Assembly: GCA_049322255.1 (NCBI GenBank) | Contig: JBMORE010000190.1 | Coordinates: forward strand, 1 to 46,790 | Length of the DNA stretch: 46,790 nucleotides | Source of the DNA: Myxococcota bacterium | GTDB taxonomy: Bacteria; Myxococcota; Myxococcia; Myxococcales; Myxococcaceae | Direction of reading: 5' to 3' | Shown here: positions 10,981 to 34,006 of the stretch, piece by piece | How positions within the stretch are numbered: the first letter of the stretch is position 1 | How the letters are laid out: every line of letters begins with the position of its first letter | Notes under the pieces: model-generated | What the model was told of the DNA's origin: nothing | Seen by the model: only the letters and a program-made list of their open reading frames with translations | Database searches by the model: none | Program-made: the position numbers and the translations under genes

Positions 10981-11070
10981 TCCCGCTCCCTCTGGGAGAG
11001 GGTGAGGGTGAGGGGTGCTGTTGGCGAGCGAAAGCCCCTCACCCCTACCCTCTCCCACGGGGAGAGGGAG
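10981..11070. repeat. Inverted pair of REP-like palindromic units (CCCCTCACCC-N2-CCCTCTCCC...GGGAGAGGG type)
   Basis: The reverse complement of 10981-11015 (cccctcaccctcaccctctcccagagggagcggga) matches 11035-11070 (cccctcacccctaccctctcccacggggagagggag). Each unit also has an internal hairpin. Confidence 0.75.
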
Positions 11071-11071
11071 G

Positions 11072-11956
11072 CTAGCGAAGCGCTTGGACGACGGCAGTAA
11101 CGACCGCTTCGAGGTGAGCGGAGTAGCGCTGGCTCTCACCGGCCATCCCCGGCACTCGCACCAACTTCGCTCCCGAGTTGTGTGCGAGCAGCTCGCTGGT
11201 CGATGCCGGGTACCACTCCTCTTGGAGAATGAGCGGCACCTTGCGCGCGCGAATGACTTGCAGCACCTGCGCGACGTGGCCGGTGGAGGGTGGCAGGCCG
11301 GGCTTGGGCTCGACGAAGGCCACCTCCTCCAGGCCGGCGAAGTCGACGAAGTAGATCCAACTCTTGTGGTAGGCGACCACCGGGGTTCCCTTGAACGGCG
11401 CGAGCGCCTTCTCCCATTGGGCGATGCGCCCTTCGAGGTGCTCGGAGAAAGCCTTGGCCTGGGAGAGGTACGCCGCGCGGTGCTCGGGGTCGAGCGCGCT
11501 CAGACGTTCGGCGATGCCTTTGGCCACAAGAAGGGCGTTGCGCGGGTCCTTGGTGTAGTGCGGGTTGCCGCCCGGGTGCACATCGCCCATCGAGCGGTCG
11601 AGCTTCGCCAGCGGCACCTCCTTGGGCGCGACGAGCGTGGAGGCGTCGAGGTAGCCGGAGGTACCGGGCTGAATCTTCCCATTGCGTGAGCCGGTGAGCA
11701 GCACCGGCAGCCAGCCGATTTCCAGGTCCATCCCCGCCAAGAGCAAGAGGTCGGCGCGCGAAAGCATCACCACCAGGCTGGGCTTGGCGTCGACGAAGTG
11801 TGGGTCTTGGGTGGCTTTGGCGAGGATGGAGACGTTCACGTGCTCTCCGCCGACTTCGCGGGCGATGACGCCTAAGTCGGAGACGGTGGCGACGACATTG
11901 ACCTTGGCCTCGCCGACGGAGGCGAAGCACAACCCCAATAGGACCAGAAACCTCAT
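11072..11956 (-). CDS. Zn/Mn-type metal ABC transporter substrate-binding protein (ZnuA family)
   Basis: Signal peptide, 'QDPHFV', 'GDVHPGGNPHY', 'YHKSWIYF', 'EPKPGLPPS..H'. Confidence 0.9.
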   Translation of the reverse strand: MRFLVLLGLCFASVGEAKVNVVATVSDLGVIAREVGGEHVNVSILAKATQDPHFVDAKPSLVVMLSRADLLLLAGMDLEIGWLPVLLTGSRNGKIQPGTSGYLDASTLVAPKEVPLAKLDRSMGDVHPGGNPHYTKDPRNALLVAKGIAERLSALDPEHRAAYLSQAKAFSEHLEGRIAQWEKALAPFKGTPVVAYHKSWIYFVDFAGLEEVAFVEPKPGLPPSTGHVAQVLQVIRARKVPLILQEEWYPASTSELLAHNSGAKLVRVPGMAGESQRYSAHLEAVVTAVVQALR

Positions 11957-11977
11957 GACGACTCCTGCTCGCTCTTC

Positions 11978-13102
11978 TTAGAAGGCGTGAGCTCCATGCG
12001 CGCCCACCGAGAATTCGAATGCCAAAAAGACGGCGTACACCGGAGCTTCTTCAAATGTCGGCACGTCGGCCGAGCCCTGGAGGCGAAGCCGGGAGAACTC
12101 GGTGGGCCAGAAGGTGACGTTGGCGCTCACCCGGTGACGGAAGGAAGTCCACTCCGGATCGAGCGGGTCGATGCCTCCTTCGGCCGGCGAACCCAGCTCG
12201 TAGCGGGCGGCCGATCCCCAGCGCTGAGCGAAACGCCAAAAGAGCTGGCCGTAGCCGCTCCAGTCCGTGAGCAAGGCGTCGGGGATTCGCCGCCGCCGGT
12301 AGAAAACCTCTCCCTGGAAGGACACCTGGGTGGTGCTGCCCTCGGTGAGCGGCCGGTATTTGAGGTAGACATCCGCGCCATAGATGGTGGTGCGTTTGTT
12401 TTCTCCGGTGGGGTTGGGGCCGTTGGCCGCGGAGAGCCCCCAGAACAAGGAGAGGTCGTCGCGAAGCTCGTGGAACTGCTTCACCGCTCCGGTGAGCTGG
12501 AAATCAAGCGGGCTCTTGACCTCCACATCCTCCGCTCCCAGGAAGCTGCGCGCCGTTTCCTCGCCCGCGGCATCCGTTGCCGAGCCCACCAGCTCCAAAA
12601 ACCATGGCAGCGGCATCAACCACGAGGCCTCCACACCCAAGCCGTGGTTGCCATCGGCTCCAAACACCCTTCCCAGCGCGAAGGGCTGATCGGCGAAGGC
12701 CCAGGTGTGGGGGTGGGTGTGGTTGAGCCGCCCGAAGCGGGTGAGGAATTGCCCCGCGCGCATCTGCACCCCCGCAGGGAGCGCCAGGGTGGTCGCGTAG
12801 ACCTCTTCCACCTCTACTTTCACCTCTCCATCCTCTTCAGCGAAGACGATGTTGGAGTCGAAACGGAAGTAGGGGTCGACCGCCGCTCCCACCGCCAGCT
12901 CCAGCTGTTGCAAGTTGAACCCGCTCTTGCGTGGGTCGTGGGCCCCGGTCTGGAAGTTCTCCTCGCTGGAAAACACCGCGGCGGCGATGTCGGTGACGAG
13001 CGAGATGTCGGGGTTGAGCGACTGAAGGCCGAAGCCAGCACGCGCGGGAGCCGGCGCTTGCGTCAGAACAACAGCGAAAACGACAGGAAGTCCAAGCATC
13101 AT
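11978..13102 (-). CDS. Outer-membrane beta-barrel linked to metal uptake (family often labelled zinc-regulated OM receptor)
   Basis: 'NPDISL', 'FNLQQLEL...VDPYF', 'GQFLTRFGRLNHTHPHTW.FADQP', 'PTEFSRLRLQ', C-terminal 'GAHGAHAF'. Directly upstream of the ZnuA-like gene. Confidence 0.75.
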   Translation of the reverse strand: MMLGLPVVFAVVLTQAPAPARAGFGLQSLNPDISLVTDIAAAVFSSEENFQTGAHDPRKSGFNLQQLELAVGAAVDPYFRFDSNIVFAEEDGEVKVEVEEVYATTLALPAGVQMRAGQFLTRFGRLNHTHPHTWAFADQPFALGRVFGADGNHGLGVEASWLMPLPWFLELVGSATDAAGEETARSFLGAEDVEVKSPLDFQLTGAVKQFHELRDDLSLFWGLSAANGPNPTGENKRTTIYGADVYLKYRPLTEGSTTQVSFQGEVFYRRRRIPDALLTDWSGYGQLFWRFAQRWGSAARYELGSPAEGGIDPLDPEWTSFRHRVSANVTFWPTEFSRLRLQGSADVPTFEEAPVYAVFLAFEFSVGAHGAHAF

Positions 13103-13175
13103 TCAGACGTACCCAATAGGCTGGAGCAGAGCTTGCAGCGGGGGGAAGCGAACAACGAACCTGAAGGCCTCGAAG

Positions 13176-13439
13176 CTAGGCCGTAGGAGGTCCGTGTTTG
13201 GGTGCGCGCATCAGGCAGCGCTCGACACGCGGCGCTTCGATGAAAACGACCGCGCTCCCGAGCTCGACCGTGACTGGCGCCGCCAACTCCACCCGCTCCA
13301 GCACCTCGGAGGGGCTGTGACACACCTGGCAGCTCGCGCACACCGAAGTTTCGCCATCGGCGAAGGAGTGCGTGTGCGTGCCACTGAAGACCACCGCTCC
13401 GATCCAGACGAGGATGATGGCAAGCGCAGTCAGACGCAC
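13176..13439 (-). CDS. Small DUF2946-like His/Cys protein; candidate regulatory uORF / arrest peptide
   Basis: Hydrophobic N-terminus, HTH(S) then CASCQVCH, C-terminal 'RAPKHGPP'. First gene of the metal-uptake operon. Confidence 0.65.
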   Translation of the reverse strand: MRLTALAIILVWIGAVVFSGTHTHSFADGETSVCASCQVCHSPSEVLERVELAAPVTVELGSAVVFIEAPRVERCLMRAPKHGPPTA

Positions 13440-13534
13440 GCAGGGGTAACTACGGCGAGCCCACCGCCAAGGTCAAGTGAAACGCATGACGACCGACTGG
13501 ACTGGGAGCGTGAGTCTCATATGGTTGGACCTCG

Positions 13535-16081
13535 ATGGCAGACAACCGGCGCGCCCAGCGAAAAGCAGTGGGTCTGCTCGTCAAGCTCAAGCACCCCAAC
13601 CGCACCACCTTTGCCGAGGAGTTCGCCACCAACCTGAGCGAAGGAGGCATGTTCATTCGCAGCCGGCAGCCACAGCCGGTGGGCACCCTGGTGAAATTCG
13701 AAGTGCAGATCGCCGGGGGCGAGAGGGTGATGCAGGGGCTGGCCGTGGTGCGCTGGGTGCGGAACGTGAACGACCCGCTCGGCCCGCCGGGCATGGGGCT
13801 GCAGTTCGAGAAGCTCGACGAATTCACCCAGGCGCTGGTCGAGCAGATGCTCAAACCGAAGGCGAAGAAGAGCGCTCCACCACCTGCTCCTCCGATTGCT
13901 CCGGCGATCGCCCCGGTGGTTCCACCGGTGGCTCCCATGGCCAAGGTCGCGGCGGCTTCGCCTGCTCCTAAAAAGGCAACAAGCGCTTCCGCCCAGCCCG
14001 CCGTCGAGCTCGAGGTGCCCATCGTCAGCCAAGACGCGCCCGGCATCGATTTGACGCTCGACCTCGCCGAGGTGCCGCCCACCCCGCTGGGAGCGGTCGA
14101 CATCGAGCTCGACACGCTGCTGGGCTCCGCTCCCACGCCTTCCGCCGCCGCACCTACCTCCGCCACCAGCCTCGACGACATCTTCGCCCGCCTCGAGCAA
14201 GAGTCGGCATCCACTCCGGCGCTCGAGCTGGCCCTCGACACCCAGGACCTCGGAGCGCCACTCTCTTCTGCGGCACCTCCTCCGAAGGCGAAGGCCGAGG
14301 CGCTGCCTCCGGTTCGGCGCGGGCCCGCCGCCAAAGAAGAACCGAAGAAGAAACCGGTCTTGCTCGAGAGCGCCAAGCCGGCACCCGCGCCGGTACAGAA
14401 GGCGGGGCCGGTATTTCTCACCCCACCTGCGAAGCTCTCCGCCGACGGGCTCATCATCGGCATCGACTTGGGCACCACCAACTCCTGCGTGGCGCTCTTG
14501 CAAAGCGGCCGCCCCGCCATCTTGCGCTCGAAGGACGGTTACAACACCCTGCCCTCGGTGGTTTCGCTGACCTCGGCCAACAAGCTCTTGGTGGCGCACC
14601 GGGCGAAGAGCCAGATGATTCTCAACCCCGCCAGCACCATCTACGGGGCCAAGCGACTGGTGGGCCGGCCTTTCGACAGCGCCGTCGTGCAGCAGGTGCG
14701 CGAGCGCTTCCACTACGAAGTGCTGCCCGGTCACGATGGCCGGGCGGCGGTGCAGCTGGGCCCGCACGTGCTCTCGCTCGAGGAGGTGCAGGGCATCATC
14801 TTGCGCGAGTGCAAAGAGATGGCCGAGCAGCAGCTGGGTAAGCCAGTCACCCGGGCGGTCATCACCGTGCCGGCGTACTACTCCGAGCCGCAGCGCGAGG
14901 CGGTGCGCAAGGCGGGAGCGATGGCCGGCCTCAAGGTGGAGCGCATCTTGAACGAGCCCACCGCGGCGGCGCTGGCCTTCGGCCTCAACCGCCAGTTGAA
15001 CAAGAAGGTGCTCGTCTACGACCTCGGCGGCGGAACTTTCGACGCCACCCTGCTCAAGATCGAGAACAACGTCTTCGAGGTGCTCGCCACCGGTGGCGAC
15101 ATCTTCTTGGGCGGCATCGACTTCGACAACAAGCTGGTCGACCTTCTGCTCACGCAGTTCCAGGAGACGGAGAAGCTGGCCTTCGAGGGCGATTCCATCG
15201 CGCTCTCCCGGGTGAGCGAGGCAGCGGAGAAGGCCAAGTGCGCGCTGTCGGAGCGGGCGAGCTACGACGTTCACATTCCGATGGTGATGATGGACGGAAG
15301 CGGCAAGCCGCACGACCTGCGCTGCACCATGACCCGGGAAATGGTGCATGCGGCGTGCGGCCCCCTGGTGCTGCGCACTCTCGACGTGGTGCGTGACGTG
15401 CTGCTCGACGCCAACGTCAAACCCAAGGAGGTGGACGAGATCATTCTCGTCGGGGGGCAAAGCCGCATGCCCATGGTGCGCGACCGGCTCAAGGAGTTCT
15501 TCGGCAAGGCCGCGCACGCCAGCGTGAACGCCGACGAGGCGGTGGCGTTGGGCGCCGCCCTCTACTGCGGCACGGTGGACAAGGTGAGCAGCGTGGTGCT
15601 CATCGACGTTTTGCCGATGACCGTGGGTGTGGGCATGACCGGCGGCGCGTTCAAGCGGGTCATCGAGCGCAACACCCCTCTGCCGGCGCAACGTTCTTTC
15701 GCGCTGGCCACCTCGAAGGACAACGAGACGACCATCGAGCTCTCGGTCTTCCAGGGCGAAGACGCCAACGTAGCCGGCAACGAGTACTTGGGCACGGTGC
15801 GCATCGAGGATCTGCCCAAGGCTCCCAAGGGAATGGTCAAGGTGGGCGTCACCTTGCGGCTCGATGCCGAGTGCGTGCTCTACGTGGAGGCGATCGAGCT
15901 CTCATCGCGCAAGGCCATCAAGGCCACGCTCGCCACCCGGTACACCGCCGAGGAGATTCGCCAGAAGCTGGGCATCTCCGAGGAGGTGGCGAAGAAGGCC
16001 GAGGCGGGGCGAGCCGAAGAGCTCAAGGCGCGCGCCGGCGGGTTCTGGGGCTTTTTGAAGCGAATCGTCCAACGCCACTAA
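13535..16081 (+). CDS. PilZ-like (TIGR02266) domain fused through a Pro/Ala-rich linker to Hsp70/DnaK
   Basis: N-terminal RRAQR, NLSEGGMFI and GMGLQF. Hsp70 signatures GIDLGTTNS, TVPAYY, NEPTAAAL, YDLGGGTFD, GGIDFD, LVGGQSRMP, linker LIDVLP, substrate-binding beta domain. Confidence 0.9.
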   Translation: MADNRRAQRKAVGLLVKLKHPNRTTFAEEFATNLSEGGMFIRSRQPQPVGTLVKFEVQIAGGERVMQGLAVVRWVRNVNDPLGPPGMGLQFEKLDEFTQALVEQMLKPKAKKSAPPPAPPIAPAIAPVVPPVAPMAKVAAASPAPKKATSASAQPAVELEVPIVSQDAPGIDLTLDLAEVPPTPLGAVDIELDTLLGSAPTPSAAAPTSATSLDDIFARLEQESASTPALELALDTQDLGAPLSSAAPPPKAKAEALPPVRRGPAAKEEPKKKPVLLESAKPAPAPVQKAGPVFLTPPAKLSADGLIIGIDLGTTNSCVALLQSGRPAILRSKDGYNTLPSVVSLTSANKLLVAHRAKSQMILNPASTIYGAKRLVGRPFDSAVVQQVRERFHYEVLPGHDGRAAVQLGPHVLSLEEVQGIILRECKEMAEQQLGKPVTRAVITVPAYYSEPQREAVRKAGAMAGLKVERILNEPTAAALAFGLNRQLNKKVLVYDLGGGTFDATLLKIENNVFEVLATGGDIFLGGIDFDNKLVDLLLTQFQETEKLAFEGDSIALSRVSEAAEKAKCALSERASYDVHIPMVMMDGSGKPHDLRCTMTREMVHAACGPLVLRTLDVVRDVLLDANVKPKEVDEIILVGGQSRMPMVRDRLKEFFGKAAHASVNADEAVALGAALYCGTVDKVSSVVLIDVLPMTVGVGMTGGAFKRVIERNTPLPAQRSFALATSKDNETTIELSVFQGEDANVAGNEYLGTVRIEDLPKAPKGMVKVGVTLRLDAECVLYVEAIELSSRKAIKATLATRYTAEEIRQKLGISEEVAKKAEAGRAEELKARAGGFWGFLKRIVQRH

Positions 16082-25428: not shown

Positions 25429-28400
25429 TCAGATGGCCCGGCCGAAGATGTTGTACAGGCCGCGCATGATTTCCAAGCTGCGCACCAGCTCACGCGTCTT
25501 GGCCTCCCACTGTGCGGTGGTCAGCCCCTGGTAGGTGCCCGTGGAGGAGGCCGCCGCCAAATCCCAGTTCGCCTTGTACTGCTGGGCGGTGAGAATGATT
25601 TGCGGCGCCGGCGGAGGAGCGGGGTCATTGTCCTTCTTCACCGCGGCGTAGATGTACCCACCGAACGGGTCGGCGAACTGCACCACCGAGTAACCCGCCG
25701 CCGGCGTGATTTGCTCGCCGGAGCCGAGCCGGTAAACCTGGTTCTGACTGGCGAAGTCCTGGTTGAAGTTCTCGGTGAAGAACGCCATGCCGTACACCTG
25801 GGCATAGAAGCGGGTGCCCCAGGTGGGCGAGGCCTCGACCTTCTCCATCGGCAGCGCCGAGCCTGAGCCATCGAGCAGACGCGGCGGCGGCGGCGGATAG
25901 TTGAAGTCGGCGATGAAGTCTTCCCCGCGGACGAACTGGGGTGACACCACCGTGGCCAGGCCGTTGCCGGTCTTCACCAGCGAGGAGCCGTAACGGCTGC
26001 GGTCCTCCGACCACACCGCGCCATACACGTTCGACAGCTCACGGTCGAAGGTCATGTAATAGGGCAGCGAGTAGCGCAGCGCGTCCGAGCCACGGTCCAC
26101 CCCGAGGAAATTGGTGCTCGAGCTGGCGAGCGCACTGATCGCCATCACCTGATCCCAGAAGTGCCCCACCTCGTTCACGCGGGTGAAGAAGTCGTACCCG
26201 TCGCTCTCGAACAGGGTGTACATGCTGCGGCCGGGCCCGCGGGGCACGTACACCACGTCGGTGAAGCCCTGGGCCAGCGTGCTCTGGATGTAGTTGGTCT
26301 CGAGCGAATCGGGCAGCCGCGCGTTGTCCGGCTTGTTGGTGGATAGGTGCACCCAGCTCCCGCTGGGCAGCTTGCCGTGGTACCCGGTGGAGGGCGTCGC
26401 CAGCTGCCGCAACAAGGTGTTGGTGCCATCGATGACCGCCATCGTCCAGTAGTTCTGGAAGATGGGGTCTCCCACGCCGAAATACTGCTCCATCTGCTCG
26501 GCGGTCAGGTCGTAGTAGTCCTGCAGCCAGAAGATGTTGAACAGCCACTGTTGGTACACGTTGGGCAGGTTCATCGTGTAACGGTCGATGCGATTCCAAT
26601 AGCTGTCGGGCCCGAAGCCGAAGCGGTCACGCTTGAATGCGTTGAAGACGTAGTCTTCCTGGTAGCGGGTAATCCACTCGTTGGTCACTTCGAAGACGTC
26701 GGCTCCGAAGTCCCACCGGTTGCAGGCGATGTGTGCACCCACTTCGTAGTCGGAGCAGTACATGTACGGCACTTCGACCGGCATGCCTGGAGCCGTCCTC
26801 CCGACGATGTCGCGTGCCGCTGTCCAGTCGGGCTCGTTCCAGCTACCCAAATTGCGCTGCCAGTCGAAGTAGACCTTCTCCAGCTTGTCGTAGAGCGCCT
26901 CGAGCTCGCTCCACTTGCGATAGGAGCGGTTGCCCATGCGCTTCACGCCCTGATCGAGCATCTGCTCGAAGGTCTGGTTGGTGTCGGCGAAGTGGAAGGG
27001 CAGCGTCGTGTAGTGGAACCGGTCGGTGTAGAAGTTGGAGACCGGCGTGTAGTGCTGCACGTGCGCCAGCGGAATCTCGGTGTGCGCGCCGCGAACCACC
27101 AACTGTTTGGCCAGGTTGTCGGTGGGCATCGCCACGTTGGGGTTCTCGTAGTCGCGCGGGGTCTTTCCACGGGTTTCGTTGAAGACCTCGACCCAGCCCG
27201 GTTCCCCGCCACCGGCGTAGGCGAAGAGGATGGCCGCCTGGTCGTACTTGCCGATGCCGCGGTCGACCCAGAAACGCATGCTGTAGTCCATGATCGACGA
27301 GTACTGGTAGTCGGCCATCCGGGCGTCGATCTGCATCTGGTTCTGCCGCGTGGCGTCGAGCAGATTCTGCGGCGACAGCGGTAACACGCGCTGGCCACCG
27401 ACCATCACCCCGATGGTGTCCTTGCGCAAGTCCCAATAACCGTCTTTGTAGTTGAGAGCGTCGAACGAGCCGATGAAGTTGTGGGTCAGCCCCAGAGTGT
27501 GACCGACCTCGTGCTCGCCGATGTGGCGGGTGAGCGCGTTACGCAGGTGGTTGTACACCGTGTTCCGGGCCAGCTTCTTGGCCTCGGCAGCGCTGTGGCC
27601 CTGGCTGAGAAGCTCGGCGCTCTTGGCGTCGAAGAGCTTCTTCATGTCCTTGGCCATGCCCGCCGCATGATCGTCGGCGAACTCGGCCAAGTAGAGACAG
27701 CCACCGTTGTTGATACGGGCCGCCTTCTCCAGCCGCTCCCTTTGGAGCCGCTTGAGCTCGCCCAGGTTGAGCATGGTCTGACGCGCCACCGTACGGAAGA
27801 GCGATGCATCGCTCTCCAGCTTGCGTCGCAGCTCGGCGTTGGGCGCGCTGGCCAGCACCATCGCCCGCACTTCGGGGAGGTTGATGAGCTCGGACTCGAG
27901 AGCAGGATTGTTGGCGATGAGCTGGTCCACCACTTCGCGGCGATCTTGCCTAAACAGCGGCAGGTGGCCCTTGGTCTTCGCGGCGTCGATCTGCGCCTTG
28001 AGGGTTCCGCGAATACCGGCGAAGGACGCTGCCGGACGTTGCGGGTCGGAGACGAGCGGCTGGCCGGAGGTGGCCGGGCCGCTGGCCTGACGGCGGGGGT
28101 CGGTGGGATTTAGGTGCTCGAAGACGTAGTCGCGAATGTCTTTGCCGCTGATCAGGTCTTCGAGAGCAAGGTCGCCGTTGAGAACGTCGACCATCTGCTG
28201 TGTGCTGCCGGCGATGGCGTCGATGCCCGCCCCGTAGATGTTGGCCACACCTTGGATGATTTCCCCCGTTTCCGGATCGGCGGCCGAGGGGCCCAGGCCC
28301 AAGGGGCCTGCCAGCTGCGGCTGGTCAATCCACGGAATCTGGTTGTAGCGGAGGTCGCCCAGCCGCACGGTGAGGCCCTGAGGCCCGCACGCGGCGGGAG

Positions 28401-29631
28401 CGCCTTCCGGCACCGGGTTTTGACAGACGTAGAACATCTGGGGGACGTCGTTGACCTCCAGCCCCCGGGGAACCGCCACCGCGCGACGGAAGGCCCAGTC
28501 CCAGCTCTCCTCGATGCCCTTGGCCGCGTCCATCAAGTCTTGCGGCCAGTTGGAGCTCAAGTAGTAAACGACCGGCTTGGGAGTGCGCTGGTCGACCGGA
28601 ATCGGCTTGCGGCATAAGCCCGCCTCACAGGCAAAGCCGTCGGCGCACAGCCCGGCGGCGTTGCAGGCGCCGGCCACCTCATGCGCGTGCTCCCAGATGT
28701 CGTGGCGGTTGGCGTAGGTGAGGCGGCCCGACTCGGTCACCCCACGGTTGCGGTCGTAGGTCACGCGGTCGGTGCGGAAGTAGCCGAACTTCGTTTCCAG
28801 CTTGTCGCCGTAGACGAGCGGCTCGTAGTCGAGCACGTGCGCCTCGTCGATGCGCCGCACCGAGGTGCGGATTTCAATCTCCGCGCTCTCGCAGTCCATT
28901 CTGGGGTTGAGCCAGCAGTAAGGAATACGGCCGTAGCCCGGGTAATAGAAAGTCGGCGGGTCGAAAATCGCCCGCAAGGTGAAGTCGAAGTACGCCAGCT
29001 CCTTCTTGCCGTTCTTTTCCACGTATTCGGTGAAGAACGCGTCGTCTTCGGTGTTGTCGTTCTCGGGAGCGATCCAACGGACCAGGGTGGCGCCCGAGGG
29101 ATACATATCGAGGAAGTTGACGATGGAGTTCGTCGCCCAGTTCACCCGAATGAACTCGCGCTCGTACCACGGCCGATCCTGGGTGTCCTCGACGAGGATG
29201 TTCGTCTGCTCGCCGGTCGCCGCGTTGTACTGCCGCTGCCGGTCGAAGTGCTTGACGATGGTCCAGGCGGCCACCGGTGCCCCGCGGTAGGGCTGGCCGT
29301 CGAGGGTCACCGTGTTGCCCAAGATGGAGCGCTGCTGGTCCACCGTCGGGTCGGTGCCGGGAACCCACTCATAGGTACGGTACGCGACCAGGTAGTCCTC
29401 CTGAATCTCGAACCGCACCTTCTCCAGCGCGCTCGGGTAACCGACGACCGCGAGCGGCGAAGTGGGAGGCACATCGACGATGGTGCTCTGCACGTACCAA
29501 GTGCCCGAGAGCAGGTCCGTCTTCTTGATTTCGTTGGGCTCGGTTCGGTCGATGAGGGCCGGAGACTGGTTGCAGGCCGCGACCAACATCGCGGCGACGG
29601 CCAGACCCAGGGTGCGCAAACGGGGGTTCAT
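25429..29631 (-). CDS. Giant (1400 aa) zinc-dependent metalloprotease lipoprotein, paralogue 2
   Basis: GGAG RBS, lipobox VAAC, metzincin HEVGHTLGLTHNF, Met-turn-like YSSIMDY, 'KFGYFRT'. Confidence 0.85.
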   Translation of the reverse strand: MNPRLRTLGLAVAAMLVAACNQSPALIDRTEPNEIKKTDLLSGTWYVQSTIVDVPPTSPLAVVGYPSALEKVRFEIQEDYLVAYRTYEWVPGTDPTVDQQRSILGNTVTLDGQPYRGAPVAAWTIVKHFDRQRQYNAATGEQTNILVEDTQDRPWYEREFIRVNWATNSIVNFLDMYPSGATLVRWIAPENDNTEDDAFFTEYVEKNGKKELAYFDFTLRAIFDPPTFYYPGYGRIPYCWLNPRMDCESAEIEIRTSVRRIDEAHVLDYEPLVYGDKLETKFGYFRTDRVTYDRNRGVTESGRLTYANRHDIWEHAHEVAGACNAAGLCADGFACEAGLCRKPIPVDQRTPKPVVYYLSSNWPQDLMDAAKGIEESWDWAFRRAVAVPRGLEVNDVPQMFYVCQNPVPEGAPAACGPQGLTVRLGDLRYNQIPWIDQPQLAGPLGLGPSAADPETGEIIQGVANIYGAGIDAIAGSTQQMVDVLNGDLALEDLISGKDIRDYVFEHLNPTDPRRQASGPATSGQPLVSDPQRPAASFAGIRGTLKAQIDAAKTKGHLPLFRQDRREVVDQLIANNPALESELINLPEVRAMVLASAPNAELRRKLESDASLFRTVARQTMLNLGELKRLQRERLEKAARINNGGCLYLAEFADDHAAGMAKDMKKLFDAKSAELLSQGHSAAEAKKLARNTVYNHLRNALTRHIGEHEVGHTLGLTHNFIGSFDALNYKDGYWDLRKDTIGVMVGGQRVLPLSPQNLLDATRQNQMQIDARMADYQYSSIMDYSMRFWVDRGIGKYDQAAILFAYAGGGEPGWVEVFNETRGKTPRDYENPNVAMPTDNLAKQLVVRGAHTEIPLAHVQHYTPVSNFYTDRFHYTTLPFHFADTNQTFEQMLDQGVKRMGNRSYRKWSELEALYDKLEKVYFDWQRNLGSWNEPDWTAARDIVGRTAPGMPVEVPYMYCSDYEVGAHIACNRWDFGADVFEVTNEWITRYQEDYVFNAFKRDRFGFGPDSYWNRIDRYTMNLPNVYQQWLFNIFWLQDYYDLTAEQMEQYFGVGDPIFQNYWTMAVIDGTNTLLRQLATPSTGYHGKLPSGSWVHLSTNKPDNARLPDSLETNYIQSTLAQGFTDVVYVPRGPGRSMYTLFESDGYDFFTRVNEVGHFWDQVMAISALASSSTNFLGVDRGSDALRYSLPYYMTFDRELSNVYGAVWSEDRSRYGSSLVKTGNGLATVVSPQFVRGEDFIADFNYPPPPPRLLDGSGSALPMEKVEASPTWGTRFYAQVYGMAFFTENFNQDFASQNQVYRLGSGEQITPAAGYSVVQFADPFGGYIYAAVKKDNDPAPPPAPQIILTAQQYKANWDLAAASSTGTYQGLTTAQWEAKTRELVRSLEIMRGLYNIFGRAI

Positions 29632-29681
29632 GTTCACTCCGTGGTGATGGGCATTCTTCGAAGACAGGTTCGGGCGCATGG

Positions 29682-32600
29682 TTAGAAAGCCCTCCCGAAG
29701 ATGTCGTAGAAGCCGCGCATCAGATCGAGGTCGCGGATGGTGTCCTTGAAGTACTCGGTGTATTCCTTGCGCCGCTGCTCCACGAGGTATGGGTTGCTTC
29801 GCTGGTCGGCGGGCATGCAGTCGCCCACGGTGTCGCCGGGACCGCCGAACGAGTTGGGGATGCGGGGCATCGGGCAGATGGCCGGGTCTTCCACCACCTG
29901 CCGATAGGCGTCGGCGATGCGAATGAGCCGCAACGCGGGGGTCGACATCCCGGAGGAACCGTCTTTCTCAATCGCCACGTAGCGGTGGCCGGTGGTGACG
30001 TCGGCGACCTCCACCGCGTGGTAACCGGGAGCAACCTGCACCTGCTCCTGGGAGCCGAGCTTGAACACCTGGTTCTGCTTGGCGAAGTCGAGGTCGTAGT
30101 TGACGCTGAAGAGGGCCATGCCCAGCCACAAGGCGTAAATTCGGCTCGTCCATGTGAGCTGGATGTTCACCGGTGCCACCAACTGCTCGGTCTTGAAGCA
30201 GTTTTGGGTGATGCCCTGATTGCAGACCGGCTGGTAGCGTGGGTAGGCGAAGCCCTGCACGTAATTCTCTCCCGCGATGTAGCGCTTGAACTGCACCGCC
30301 GAGGTCTTGGAGACCTTCCCCGCCTCGTCGAGGGTGAGGAACATGTTCGGGCGAATCGAGCCCTCGTCGTAGCCCCAGAGCTGGCCGAAGGTGTCGCCGA
30401 ACTCCTGCTTGAACACCAGGTAGTACGGAATCGAGTAGCGACGGAAGTCGGCGATGTCGTCGACCCCGAGGAAGGTCGCCTGGGGAAGGACGGCGGCGAT
30501 CATCGCACCCATTTGGTCGTTGTAGTGACCAGCCTCGAGCATGCGGTCCCAGAAGCCGAAGCCGCTCTTGAAGTCGTAGCGGCTGTACATGCGGCGGGCA
30601 AAGCCACGGCGCAGGTGAGCGAACGACGAGGCCCCGTAGTTGGAGGTGTAGTAGTCCTCGATAATCTGCTGGCCCTCGGGGAGGAGGTCGTCGAAATCCA
30701 CCCCTTCCGAGAGCAGGTCCCACTGGCCGTCGCCGTTTCCGAAGTCGCGGTACATGAAGAAGCCCGCGGGCGGCACCGACATCACCCCGAGGTGGTTGTT
30801 GGCTCCGTCGAGCACCGCCATGGTCCAGGTGTCCTGCATCAAGGGGTCGTACTGGTACTTGGGCAGAGCCTGCTGGTCGGTACCCGCCTGGCCGTAGAAG
30901 GCGAAGACCCAGTGCTTGTAGATGTCGGAGAGGTCCAGATAGGTGATCGCCGCGTTGTTGAACGCGCGCGACGAGGTGAACACGTAGCGGTCGCGCTTGA
31001 AGTGAGTGAAGTAGTAGCCGTTCCAGTAGTCCTGAATCTTGGTACGGGCGACCTCGTAGTAGTCGGGGCCGCGGTCGAACCGCTGGCAGGACAGCACCGA
31101 GCCCACGTGGTCGTCGGTGCAGAACATGTAGGGCACCTCGAGCGGCACGTTGCCCAGCTCACCCGCGGTGGGGTTGGGGTTGTTCTTGAGCAGCGCCTCC
31201 ACCTGCTGGTTCGCCTTCTTCACCTCCGACCACTTCATCAGCTTGCGGCGGCTCAGCTTGGTGATGCCGTCGGCGATGGTGGATTCGAGGTCCGCCCCCT
31301 GACCGAAGCGCAAGGGCACAGTGGAGTAGTGAAAGCGCTCGGTGAAGTTGGGCACACCCTGGTGCTTGTGCTGGGCGTTCACCAGCGGCAGGTCGTAAGC
31401 CGCGCCGTTCAAGGTGAGCTGGTTGCCGTCTGAGCCAGGGAAGGTCTGCGGCGTCGCGCGGGCTGACTCGAACACCTCGACGTACCCCGGTTCGCTGCCG
31501 CCGGAGTAGGCGAAGATGATCGCCGCCTCGTCGTACTTACCGATGCCGTAGAAGTCGCCGTTGCGCTTCCCCGAGTAGTCCATGATGGACGAGTACTCAT
31601 AGTCGTTCATGCCGCGGGCGATCTGGGTCTCAGTGCCGTCGGAGGCGGTCATCAAGTCCGCCGGAGTCCGCGGCACCTTGGGCTGGCCGTTCTGGCTGAC
31701 GGTGAGGCTCTCCTGCTTAATCTTCCAGTAGTCGTTGAAGTAGTTGACGGCGTCGAACGAGCCCTGGAAGTTGTGGCGCAGGCCCACGGTGTGGCCGAAC
31801 TCGTGCTCGCTGGTGGCGCGCCACACCGACTGACGCAGGCGGCGGCGTACCTCCTCGTCGGCCAGCCGCCGTGCCTCGGTGGCGGTGCAGGAGTAGGTGT
31901 TGGCGCAGCTGGCGTGGCCCTGGGCGACCAGCTCGGCGATGCGCGCGGCCCGCTTGGCGTTCTCGCGCAACGCCAGCCCCATCACCTCGCGGTCCATGAA
32001 CTCGGCCAGGTAGATGTTCCTACGCGACGCCCATTCGATGCGCTGCTTCTCGAAGTCGAGCGCCGAGGTCATCCGGGTGAGCACCTCGCGCGAGGCGCGG
32101 CGCTTGAACGCCGGGTCCACCTCAGCCTGGGTCGCCAGCGGCGCGGGCAAGAGGCCCAGCACGTCGTTTTGTACGTCGGGGTTGTCGAGGATGACGCTCT
32201 CCAGCGCCGGGTTCTTCTCGAGGAGGTCGGCCGCGAGCCGGGCCCGATCCGCGGTGTACTGCGGCAACCCGCCCCGCACCTTTGCTCCTTCCAGCACCGC
32301 CGACAGCCGAGCGGTGGGCTTGTCGAACGCGCCTTGGCTGGGAAGGTTGGTCTGCGGAATGCCCTGCAGCTCAGCCTGCAGCGGGCCGGACTTCTGAGCC
32401 TTGTAGCCACCGGCATAGTTGGCCCGGTTGGCCATGTACTCCTTCACGTCATCGCCCCGAATGATGTTGTCGATGGTCTTGTCGCCCACCAAGACGTTCA
32501 TCGTGTCGAGAATGCTCTGGGCCACCGAGTCCACCGCCGCCGAGTAGGTGTTGGCGTTGGCGGAGATGATTTCGCCGGTCTCGGGGTCGGCCGAGGAGGG

Positions 32601-33971
32601 GCCGTAGCCGAGCAGTCCGTTGGGGACCGGATCGGTGATGGTGTAGACGAAGCTGTAACGCACATCGCCCAGCTTGGCCTCGAAACCCTGCGGGCCGCAG
32701 GCAGCGGGGGCGCCGGCTGGCACCGGGTTCTCGCAGACGTAGAGCATCTGGCCCACCTCGGAGGGGTCTTTGCCCTGCGCAGCGGCGGCAGCACGGCGAA
32801 AGGCCACGTCCCAGTTGGTCTCCAGAATCTTCGCCGCCTCTTTGTAGGTGTCGTAGATGTCCGAGTGACCCATTCGGTCGGCGGGCGAGAGGTAGTAGAC
32901 CACCGGCCGCAGCTTGCGCGAGGCGAAGGGAATGGGCCGGGTGGGGTCGGGCTTGCCCTCGGCGTTCTTTTCGAAGGCGCCCTTGAAGATGCGGTGCCGG
33001 TTGGCCAGGAAAATGCGCGCCGACTCGGTGGTGCCGAACTTGCGGTCGTAGTTCAACCGCTCGGTGCGGAAGTACCCGAACTTCGTCATCAGGTCGTTGC
33101 CGTAGACGAGCGGCTCGTAGTCGTTGGTGACGTTGGGGTCGACCTTCCAGATCGACGTCCTCATGTGAATTTGCTGTGAGGTGCAGTCGTAGCGGTGGCC
33201 GCCACGGAAGTAGCACAGCGGGTAGTAGCCGTAGTCCTCGATGTACACTATCTCCGGCCTCGCCCAGTAGCGGCCGGTGAAGTCCATGTACTTGAGCTTG
33301 CCGTCGGCGCCGTACTCCAAGGTGGGCCAGTCGTAGGGGTCGGTACCGGGCTCGTTGGGCTGAATCCACGAGCTGCCGCTCGAGCCCCCCGCCGGGTTCT
33401 GCAGCGTGCCCCACGACATGCCGCTGTTCATGTTGAGCAGGTTCGCCGACCAGTCGACGCGTATGTACTCGCGCTGGTTCCAGACGCGGTCGGACGCGTT
33501 CTCCGAGATGACGTTCCCCTGCTCGGCGGTGGAAGTACTGTAGCTGCGCTGAATGTCGAAGTGCGACCTGATGGGGTAGCGCACCAGCGGAGCGCCGTAG
33601 TAGCGCTGGCCGCCGCGGCACTTGCCCTGCTCATCGCACACCTTGGCGGTGGTGCCCGAGGGAATCGAAGAGAGGTCGATGTTGCTCTCCGAGCCGGGAA
33701 TGAACGGGTAGGCGCGGTAGCCAATCAGGCTCTCCATCTCGATGTCCCAGACGACCTTCTCGATGTTCCCCGTCTCGCCGGTGAAGGTAAACCCGGTGGT
33801 GGCCGGAGTCTTGGTCACCGTGTTGCGGAAGTACCAAGTTCCGTCGAGCAGGTCGGACTTCTTGATGACGTTGGGCTGGACGCGGTTGATGTCGCCAGTG
33901 CTCTGGGCGCACGCAGCGGCCAAGAGCGCGGCGCCGGCGGCGGCGAGCCATCGAGTGGACATCCGGTTCAT
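29682..33971 (-). CDS. Giant (1429 aa) zinc-dependent metalloprotease lipoprotein, paralogue 1
   Basis: GGAGG RBS, lipobox AAAC, HEFGHTVGLRHNF, YSSIMDY. Collinear with the downstream paralogue. Confidence 0.85.
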   Translation of the reverse strand: MNRMSTRWLAAAGAALLAAACAQSTGDINRVQPNVIKKSDLLDGTWYFRNTVTKTPATTGFTFTGETGNIEKVVWDIEMESLIGYRAYPFIPGSESNIDLSSIPSGTTAKVCDEQGKCRGGQRYYGAPLVRYPIRSHFDIQRSYSTSTAEQGNVISENASDRVWNQREYIRVDWSANLLNMNSGMSWGTLQNPAGGSSGSSWIQPNEPGTDPYDWPTLEYGADGKLKYMDFTGRYWARPEIVYIEDYGYYPLCYFRGGHRYDCTSQQIHMRTSIWKVDPNVTNDYEPLVYGNDLMTKFGYFRTERLNYDRKFGTTESARIFLANRHRIFKGAFEKNAEGKPDPTRPIPFASRKLRPVVYYLSPADRMGHSDIYDTYKEAAKILETNWDVAFRRAAAAAQGKDPSEVGQMLYVCENPVPAGAPAACGPQGFEAKLGDVRYSFVYTITDPVPNGLLGYGPSSADPETGEIISANANTYSAAVDSVAQSILDTMNVLVGDKTIDNIIRGDDVKEYMANRANYAGGYKAQKSGPLQAELQGIPQTNLPSQGAFDKPTARLSAVLEGAKVRGGLPQYTADRARLAADLLEKNPALESVILDNPDVQNDVLGLLPAPLATQAEVDPAFKRRASREVLTRMTSALDFEKQRIEWASRRNIYLAEFMDREVMGLALRENAKRAARIAELVAQGHASCANTYSCTATEARRLADEEVRRRLRQSVWRATSEHEFGHTVGLRHNFQGSFDAVNYFNDYWKIKQESLTVSQNGQPKVPRTPADLMTASDGTETQIARGMNDYEYSSIMDYSGKRNGDFYGIGKYDEAAIIFAYSGGSEPGYVEVFESARATPQTFPGSDGNQLTLNGAAYDLPLVNAQHKHQGVPNFTERFHYSTVPLRFGQGADLESTIADGITKLSRRKLMKWSEVKKANQQVEALLKNNPNPTAGELGNVPLEVPYMFCTDDHVGSVLSCQRFDRGPDYYEVARTKIQDYWNGYYFTHFKRDRYVFTSSRAFNNAAITYLDLSDIYKHWVFAFYGQAGTDQQALPKYQYDPLMQDTWTMAVLDGANNHLGVMSVPPAGFFMYRDFGNGDGQWDLLSEGVDFDDLLPEGQQIIEDYYTSNYGASSFAHLRRGFARRMYSRYDFKSGFGFWDRMLEAGHYNDQMGAMIAAVLPQATFLGVDDIADFRRYSIPYYLVFKQEFGDTFGQLWGYDEGSIRPNMFLTLDEAGKVSKTSAVQFKRYIAGENYVQGFAYPRYQPVCNQGITQNCFKTEQLVAPVNIQLTWTSRIYALWLGMALFSVNYDLDFAKQNQVFKLGSQEQVQVAPGYHAVEVADVTTGHRYVAIEKDGSSGMSTPALRLIRIADAYRQVVEDPAICPMPRIPNSFGGPGDTVGDCMPADQRSNPYLVEQRRKEYTEYFKDTIRDLDLMRGFYDIFGRAF

Positions 33972-34006
33972 GTTGCCTCCGTTGGGAAAGCGCATCGGGA
34001 AAGGGG

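Follow-up and report, generated by a model that had tools for sequence, protein, structure and literature searches.

Metal-sensing leader peptides that act through ribosome arrest have, in the literature searched, been demonstrated for copper only, and the accessible part of PMC9426467 states that neither Cu nor Zn has a known riboswitch. In CruR (Bp2923) of Bordetella pertussis, the same part of that paper describes a CxxC motif as the Cu site, a distance of 50 residues from C90 to P141, and the loss of control when five residues are added, while arrest itself is reported in the available sections of PMC12992588. CutF of Rhodobacter capsulatus stalls on Cu binding in an EF-P-dependent manner (bioRxiv 2025.02.05.636593, available portion). 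A survey published in the EMBO J in 2025 (PMC12992588, same sections) includes at least nine RAPP-ending leaders of similar layout ahead of a gene carrying the same porin label as the one downstream of our leader, one of them labelled DUF2946. Because that survey selected on RAPP or RGPP, leaders ending in APKx[S/G]PP, the form we describe here, fall outside it. No description of an APKx[S/G]PP tail or of a zinc-sensing leader was found in the part of the literature searched, although the CutF-like list of PMC9973294 and the supplements of PMC12992588 could include members.

The window analysed is the whole stretch of 46,790 nucleotides, taken from a Myxococcota genome assembly that is 99.6% complete. 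On its minus strand, a leader ORF of 87 aa with a GTG start (13176..13439, -) precedes the genes for an outer-membrane barrel and a solute-binding protein (SBP). The original prediction described the features of this frame accurately, namely a hydrophobic N-terminus, HxH, CxxCxxCH and RAPKHGPP, to which we add that two further residues (TA) separate the PP at 84-85 from the stop. Its distance of 73 nt to the barrel gene is likewise as predicted (leader end at 13176, barrel ATG at 13102). Residues 3-18 (13386..13433, -) reach a 15-aa Kyte-Doolittle maximum of 2.73 and form a predicted export signal or membrane anchor. A candidate metal site, H22-x-H24 plus C34-x-x-C37-x-x-C40-H41, lies at 13317..13376 (-), and a candidate arrest motif, A79-P-K-H-G-P-P85, at 13185..13205 (-), with 49 residues between C34 and P84. 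The gene upstream is divergent, which makes the leader the first gene of its unit. This neighbour starts 95 nt away (13535-16081, +) and encodes a PilZ/TIGR02266 domain joined by a Pro-rich linker to Hsp70.

Set beside the published excerpts on CruR, our leader shares the position as first gene of a metal-uptake unit, the export-like N-terminus, the CxxC, the C-terminal PP, the C-rich 3' end and a first Cys-to-PP distance of 49 residues as against 50. The two differ in that CruR has 145 aa, a RAPP tail, a 162-nt gap and a TonB-dependent copper importer downstream, whereas here we find 87 aa, APKHGPP, 73 nt and a plug-less porin with ZnuA; the HxH is extra here and the DUF2946 match is missing. 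With CutF, as far as the accessible text of PMC9973294 and bioRxiv 2025.02.05.636593 goes, it shares an exported leader, a Cys motif, an Arg-less proline tail (PEPEGPPP in CutF) and a short gap, and the anti-Shine-Dalgarno (anti-SD) output of CutF is the one we predict for many relatives of this leader. CutF differs in stalling with Cu present, turning on a detoxifying oxidase and having CxxxC, whereas uptake genes are targeted here. The features used in the available part of PMC9973294 to collect CutF-like leaders (<150 aa, PP in the last 15 residues, a signal peptide, a same-strand gene within 1000 nt) are all present in our leader, with 87 aa, PP at 84-85, a predicted export signal and 73 nt. 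By analogy, this leader may work like CruR or CutF, and the reading we lean towards, with modest confidence, is that the conserved leader stalls the ribosome at APKx[S/G]PP when zinc is scarce and so keeps the porin and ZnuA expressed.

The 87-codon ORF is a real gene, as judged from its GC content by codon position (0.68/0.52/0.79), its similarity to leaders in the same position of other genomes (tblastn E 2e-6 and 6e-4) and its rank in a leave-one-out profile search: when the 51,678 reading frames of the genome were scored with a profile built from 30 short leaders found in other genomes, it came top at E 2e-9, the runner-up standing at E 0.16. Of the 27,038 small frames of the genome, 6 passed a loose filter that asked for a hydrophobic start, a PP close to the end with a Cys 46-54 aa ahead of it, and at least two His, and the CxxC layout, judged by eye, is found only in this leader. 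Neither the profile nor the small-frame scans found a second leader copy in this genome. No Pfam or NCBIfam family matched the leader at E<=1, and a single-sequence protein search returned the leader itself as sole match. In many genomes of Myxococcaceae type (e.g. at L120 and L135) there is a second leader on the other strand, at a distance of 9-14 kb; it heads a small-protein cluster that also includes a TPR protein and a gene of the isochorismatase family and that converges on the porin-ZnuA-ABC operon.

Relatives were collected through the porin, giving 86 loci that include the present one, some genomes twice and five loci with less than 400 nt upstream. A filter for leaders (hydrophobic start, His, Cys and P..[SG]PP) was passed at 56 of these, and leaders missed by the filter occur at six further loci (L005, L030, L046, L072, L073, L087). 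Those at L072 and L073 are short CxxC leaders with the tail variants FGTSPP and FATSPP and unchanged spacing. A first screen of 56 porin loci for RAPP- or HGPP-like tails had given no consistent signal and two leaders with PKxSPP ends; a same-strand PKx[SGA]PP frame within 900 nt upstream is present at 35 of the 51 porin loci with enough sequence, while the reverse-strand control gave one match over all 56 loci.

Among the 56 leaders the tail has A in 51, K in 51, and either S (50) or G (6), preceded by A (23), S (9), T (8), Q (7), V (3), L (3), H (2) or G (1). These residues are kept while the third codon positions of the tail codons vary, so that conservation acts on the peptide. In these aligned sequences, the family tail reads A-P-K-x-[S/G]-P-P; tallies of 120/120 and 149/150 came from profiles that contain the tail and are not counted as evidence of conservation. 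A profile comparison of two leader alignments is likewise left out of account as circular, one alignment being contained in the other. The original prediction had taken the tail as an HGPP variant and proposed checking syntenic leaders for an xGPP tail. HGPP, xGPP and RAP..PP did not survive as family motifs: H occurs in 2/56 relatives, R before AP in 2/56 and G in only 6/56. RAPP tails are missing from the 56, where the filter required P..[SG]PP, and from 25 other loci on a wider look. A Sec-YidC monitor of the RQH type (RAPP/RGPP/HGPP/QAPP) was also rejected, the R/Q/H position being variable among the 56 and the downstream genes not being sec or yidC.

HGPP and RxPP stallers were reportedly obtained out of random libraries by Woolstenhulme in 2013. 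This copy has such an HGPP, as against the low counts of H and G in its relatives; HGPP is thus incidental to the family and may add to arrest in this copy. The selection of HGPP as a staller from random libraries is cited in PMC7897499 and PMC12992588, in the parts accessible.

Two subtypes share this tail. The long subtype has 120-150 aa and the layout H..H-x-x-C-x-x-H...H-x-x-C; its profile matches in 155 of 301 genomes of the phylum, a tally that includes one genome marked unpublished, and in 4,245 protein clusters at 50% identity. The short subtype, to which our leader belongs, has 85-100 aa, HxH and CxxC, and occurs in 42/301 genomes; a single family, whose tail reads PGQSPP, accounts for 36 of these. 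CxxC is found in 11 of 143 long leaders and HxxC in most. A profile of the 143 long leaders places our leader at E 0.69, rank 7; what connects it with the long type, which also heads ZigA genes, is therefore position, tail and spacing, and the sequence similarity is not significant. H22, H24, C34 and C37 are invariant among 7 short leaders, and H22 and C34 across 34 short plus long leaders, whereas C40 and H41 are not conserved. From the cysteine of His-x-x-Cys to PP, 45 of 47 long leaders scored have 49-53 residues, the other two having been mis-picked by the pattern; from the first Cys to PP, 26 of 30 short leaders have 49, as does ours. The residues in between are little conserved and their length is fixed. 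The first Pro codon of PP is CCT in 32 of 56 leaders as against 42 of 576 Pro codons of the leader bodies; further sets give 10/22 and 20/30, and CCT stands here too. Carriers include Myxococcus, Archangium and Cystobacter, cultured genera in which the family is practical to test.

This pattern bears on the possibility that the leader acts in trans as a small metal-binding protein that is exported, with the proline tail as a structural, sorting or degradation tag. An export-like N-terminus and conserved His and Cys are what such a protein would have; we nonetheless consider it improbable, as the leader comes first in its unit at every locus examined, some 50 poorly conserved residues are held at fixed length, PP lies at most 8 residues from the stop, the first Pro shows the CCT bias, and the Atlas structure model of the leader is poorly folded (pTM 0.27).

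We compared the leader with DUF2946 (PF11162), the family of CruR. Neither it nor any other protein of the genome matched at E<=1 (gathering cut-off 23.7 bits), and weak matches of 11-16 bits occur in 6/33 relatives. An Atlas look-alike cluster of the leader, with a score of 0.95, is 54% DUF2946. The CxxC of DUF2946 and CruR is present (C34/C37), the 44 residues between C37 and H82 lie within one to two residues of the 45 of that family, and the leader combines an export signal predicted by hydrophobicity (residues 3-18) with the first operon position next to a divergent gene. Its neighbours are not the copper-homeostasis genes of DUF2946/CruR, and the family is found instead with ZnuA, ZigA, DUF1826 and TonB receptors. 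Given the weak matches, the Atlas cluster and the published RAPP leaders before the same porin label, sequence comparison places the leader group at the edge of DUF2946, of which it is not a member by score or by RAPP.

The gene that follows (11978..13102, -) is modelled with pLDDT 92.8 as a 16-stranded barrel with no TonB plug, and its best structural matches are chitoporin, OprP and DcaP, with TM about 0.6. The label 'zinc-regulated TonB-dependent receptor' was discarded on the basis of the 16 strands, the missing plug and the porin matches, as against a 22-stranded barrel with a plug domain; the barrel gene is predicted from its structure model to encode a plug-less porin, and this would be the corrected label. 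The porin ends in GAHGAHAF (11978-12010, -) in nearly all relatives, which also share the invariant His motifs GxHDP and NxxHxH. A His-rich porin of this kind is possibly a metal-selective pore.

The ZnuA-like SBP that had been predicted after the barrel gene is borne out (11072..11956, -; PF01297, E 4e-44). It is the sole ZnuA-family protein of the genome, and three His positions align with solved ZnuA. Directly after its stop lies a 35-bp inverted repeat (10981..11069, unstranded), a REP-like, genome-wide element with 395 blastn matches in the genome, which likely ends the transcription unit; a uracil-DNA glycosylase gene comes next. The original prediction was right that no permease or ATPase follows the SBP locally, but the ABC system is not missing: the only ABC-3 permease of the genome and an ATPase lie together on contig C4, and the importer is therefore complete but split here. 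Among relatives, 44 loci extend 4.5 kb or more downstream, and at 38 of them the ATPase and permease lie close to the porin, three times on the opposite strand. A 280-aa conserved protein of no Pfam or NCBIfam family lies between SBP and ATPase in 35 of the 44 loci and has no match in this genome. The pair on contig C4 has TTGACT just upstream and, read by eye, a transposase-like ORF downstream; no leader and no Zur-like box were seen there.

To identify the likely metal, we examined 20 regions chosen from long-type matches, favouring extra copies and distant families, which hold 22 leaders. These are followed by a no-Pfam gene and then ZnuA in seven cases, by ZigA, a cytoplasmic GTPase, in three (634-647 bits, NCBIfam cut-off 600), by DUF1826 in one, by TonB-receptor operons in nine and by an unnamed cluster in two. 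Copper-handling Pfam families are absent from the 83 neighbour proteins scanned, out of 125 called genes. COG0523 proteins and DUF1826 are described in Zur-regulated clusters in the accessible text of PMC2770081.

We then looked for the palindrome TGCAA-N5-TTGCA, which resembles the predicted Desulfovibrio Zur site in the available part of PMC545781. With at most two mismatches, it occurs upstream at 7 of 18 leader-less loci (L008, L013, L015, L036, L039, L043, L047), at 3 of 55 leader loci and in 1 of 74 control windows, a contrast between 7/18 and 3/55 that is overstated since the pattern was chosen after three leader-less loci had been viewed and the genomes are related. The present locus, a duplicate and the six loci whose leaders the filter had missed are not part of these counts; leader and palindrome occur together at L037 and L070. 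At our leader no such box is found, the best match having 4 mismatches. For the two Fur-family proteins of the genome the best-matching models are Fur and PerR, with every score below cut-off; known Zur models fit delta-type Zur proteins poorly, and a Zur in this genome is therefore possible. Gene context and the Zur-like boxes at leader-less loci point to zinc, and in these bacteria the leader probably takes over the role of the Zur repressor.

A cis-acting stall leader could also respond to another metal (Cu, Co, Ni or Mn) or to thiol redox, or work in the reversed, CutF-like direction, possibly as an EF-P-sensitive pause. The excerpts on CruR and CutF lend this some weight, with a CxxC that binds Cu in the former and stalling upon Cu binding that depends on EF-P in the latter; moreover, ZnuA-family proteins include Mn and Fe carriers, and 9 of the 22 leaders head TonB-receptor operons of unassigned cargo. 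We regard it as unlikely, though not negligibly so, in view of the context of ZigA, DUF1826 and a three-His ZnuA, the leader-less loci with Zur-like boxes and the lack of copper genes among the 83 neighbours.

The zinc-responsive stall that we favour starts from what is directly established, that is the ORF, its conservation, its tail, the fixed Cys-to-PP distance and the gene context. By analogy with CruR, when the ribosome is at the PP codons the residue about 50 back would lie outside the exit tunnel and the His/Cys cluster would be free to bind metal. Once bound, the metal would make the nascent chain fold and so end the stall, and the released ribosome would end two codons on and leave, whereupon the downstream genes would be shut off. 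This shut-off is the least certain step of the mechanism. Against the reading, APKx[S/G]PP lacks the Arg required for RAPP/RGPP arrest, and, in the accessible parts of the respective papers, CxxC is the copper site of CruR and CutF shows that such a layout can run in the opposite direction. In addition, most RAPP-like sequences from ordinary proteins failed to arrest when tested (PMC10987492). The original idea of a CruR-like metal leader, probably not for copper, thus holds in general terms, by conservation, spacing and gene context, while its motif assignment does not.

The stall might instead be freed by the pull of the Sec translocon in a SecM-type export monitor, in which case the synthesis of porin and SBP would follow export capacity and metal would play no part. 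We judge this quite improbable, given that His and Cys are invariant at a fixed distance and that a cytoplasmic protein, ZigA, is among the targets, even if porin and SBP are both exported and Sec/YidC monitors likewise combine a hydrophobic N-terminus with a PP at the C-terminal end (PMC10987492).

If the zinc-responsive reading is true, it would add a stall sequence and a metal not represented among the known copper-sensing leaders. A large family with a different tail and zinc-type targets can be used to probe nascent-chain zinc sensing and arrest without the RAPP Arg. More tentatively, and with rather less confidence than we place in the local reading, we propose that APKx[S/G]PP is an Arg-less arrest motif, that the leaders form a zinc-sensing regulon (porin-ZnuABC, ZigA, DUF1826 and TonB receptors) replacing Zur across much of Myxococcota, and that the short CxxC copy links the RAPP-type DUF2946 copper leaders to the His-rich long type.

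Finally, we assessed how expression may start and how it may be shut off. A candidate sigma-70-type promoter (13447..13476, -) consists of TTGACC (13471-13476), an 18-nt spacer and TAGTTA (13447-13452). It ends 7 nt before the leader GTG, so that a short or absent 5' leader is likely. A strict promoter scan around this leader gave no match. Of the 56 leaders, 41 have TTGAC 24-59 nt upstream of the start, where 0.03 occurrences per 75 nt would be expected, and 5 have SD-like words ahead of the start. The leaderless-mRNA pattern TAnnnT, 5-8 nt before the start, was dismissed, being present in 2/56 only.

In many relatives, release of the ribosome is predicted to uncover a C/U-rich tail that would pair with the Shine-Dalgarno site of the porin. 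Over 50 loci, the mean cost of opening the porin ribosome-binding site is 12.3 kcal/mol in the free state and falls to 9.5 when the stall site is blocked, synonymously recoded controls giving 10.3. In 29 of the 50 loci the drop on blocking is larger than 1 kcal/mol; in 39 the real value is higher than the average of the controls, and 18 loci outdo 18 or more of their 20 controls. The same test on this copy showed no drop (8.3 to 9.3 kcal/mol). Its 73-nt intergenic region (13103..13175, -) has no GGAG-type Shine-Dalgarno word and no intrinsic terminator, and does not fold above shuffled sequences (z -0.96). An anti-SD switch is therefore not supported for this copy, with no drop, no GGAG word and an ordinary fold. 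Over their final 60 nt the leaders are rich in C (skew 0.28-0.34), in part from Pro codons, and Rho is present in the genome. Termination by Rho on this C-rich tail, the route taken in CruR, would be more likely here than anti-SD control, and we favour the inference of anti-SD control in many relatives and Rho-type control in this copy.

The family could also be regulatory and this copy decayed, with its operon split and its RNA switch lost. ATPase and permease are indeed on another contig here as against near the porin in 38/44 loci of relatives, and the SD word and the predicted switch are both missing; yet the invariant residues, the 49-residue spacing, the CCT codon, the porin and the SBP are all intact, and we hold decay to be very improbable. 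Elsewhere in the window, two genes in tandem at 25429-33995 (-) code for proteins of roughly 1,420 aa that both match Met-zincin (DUF4953) weakly and are paralogous candidate zinc metalloproteases.
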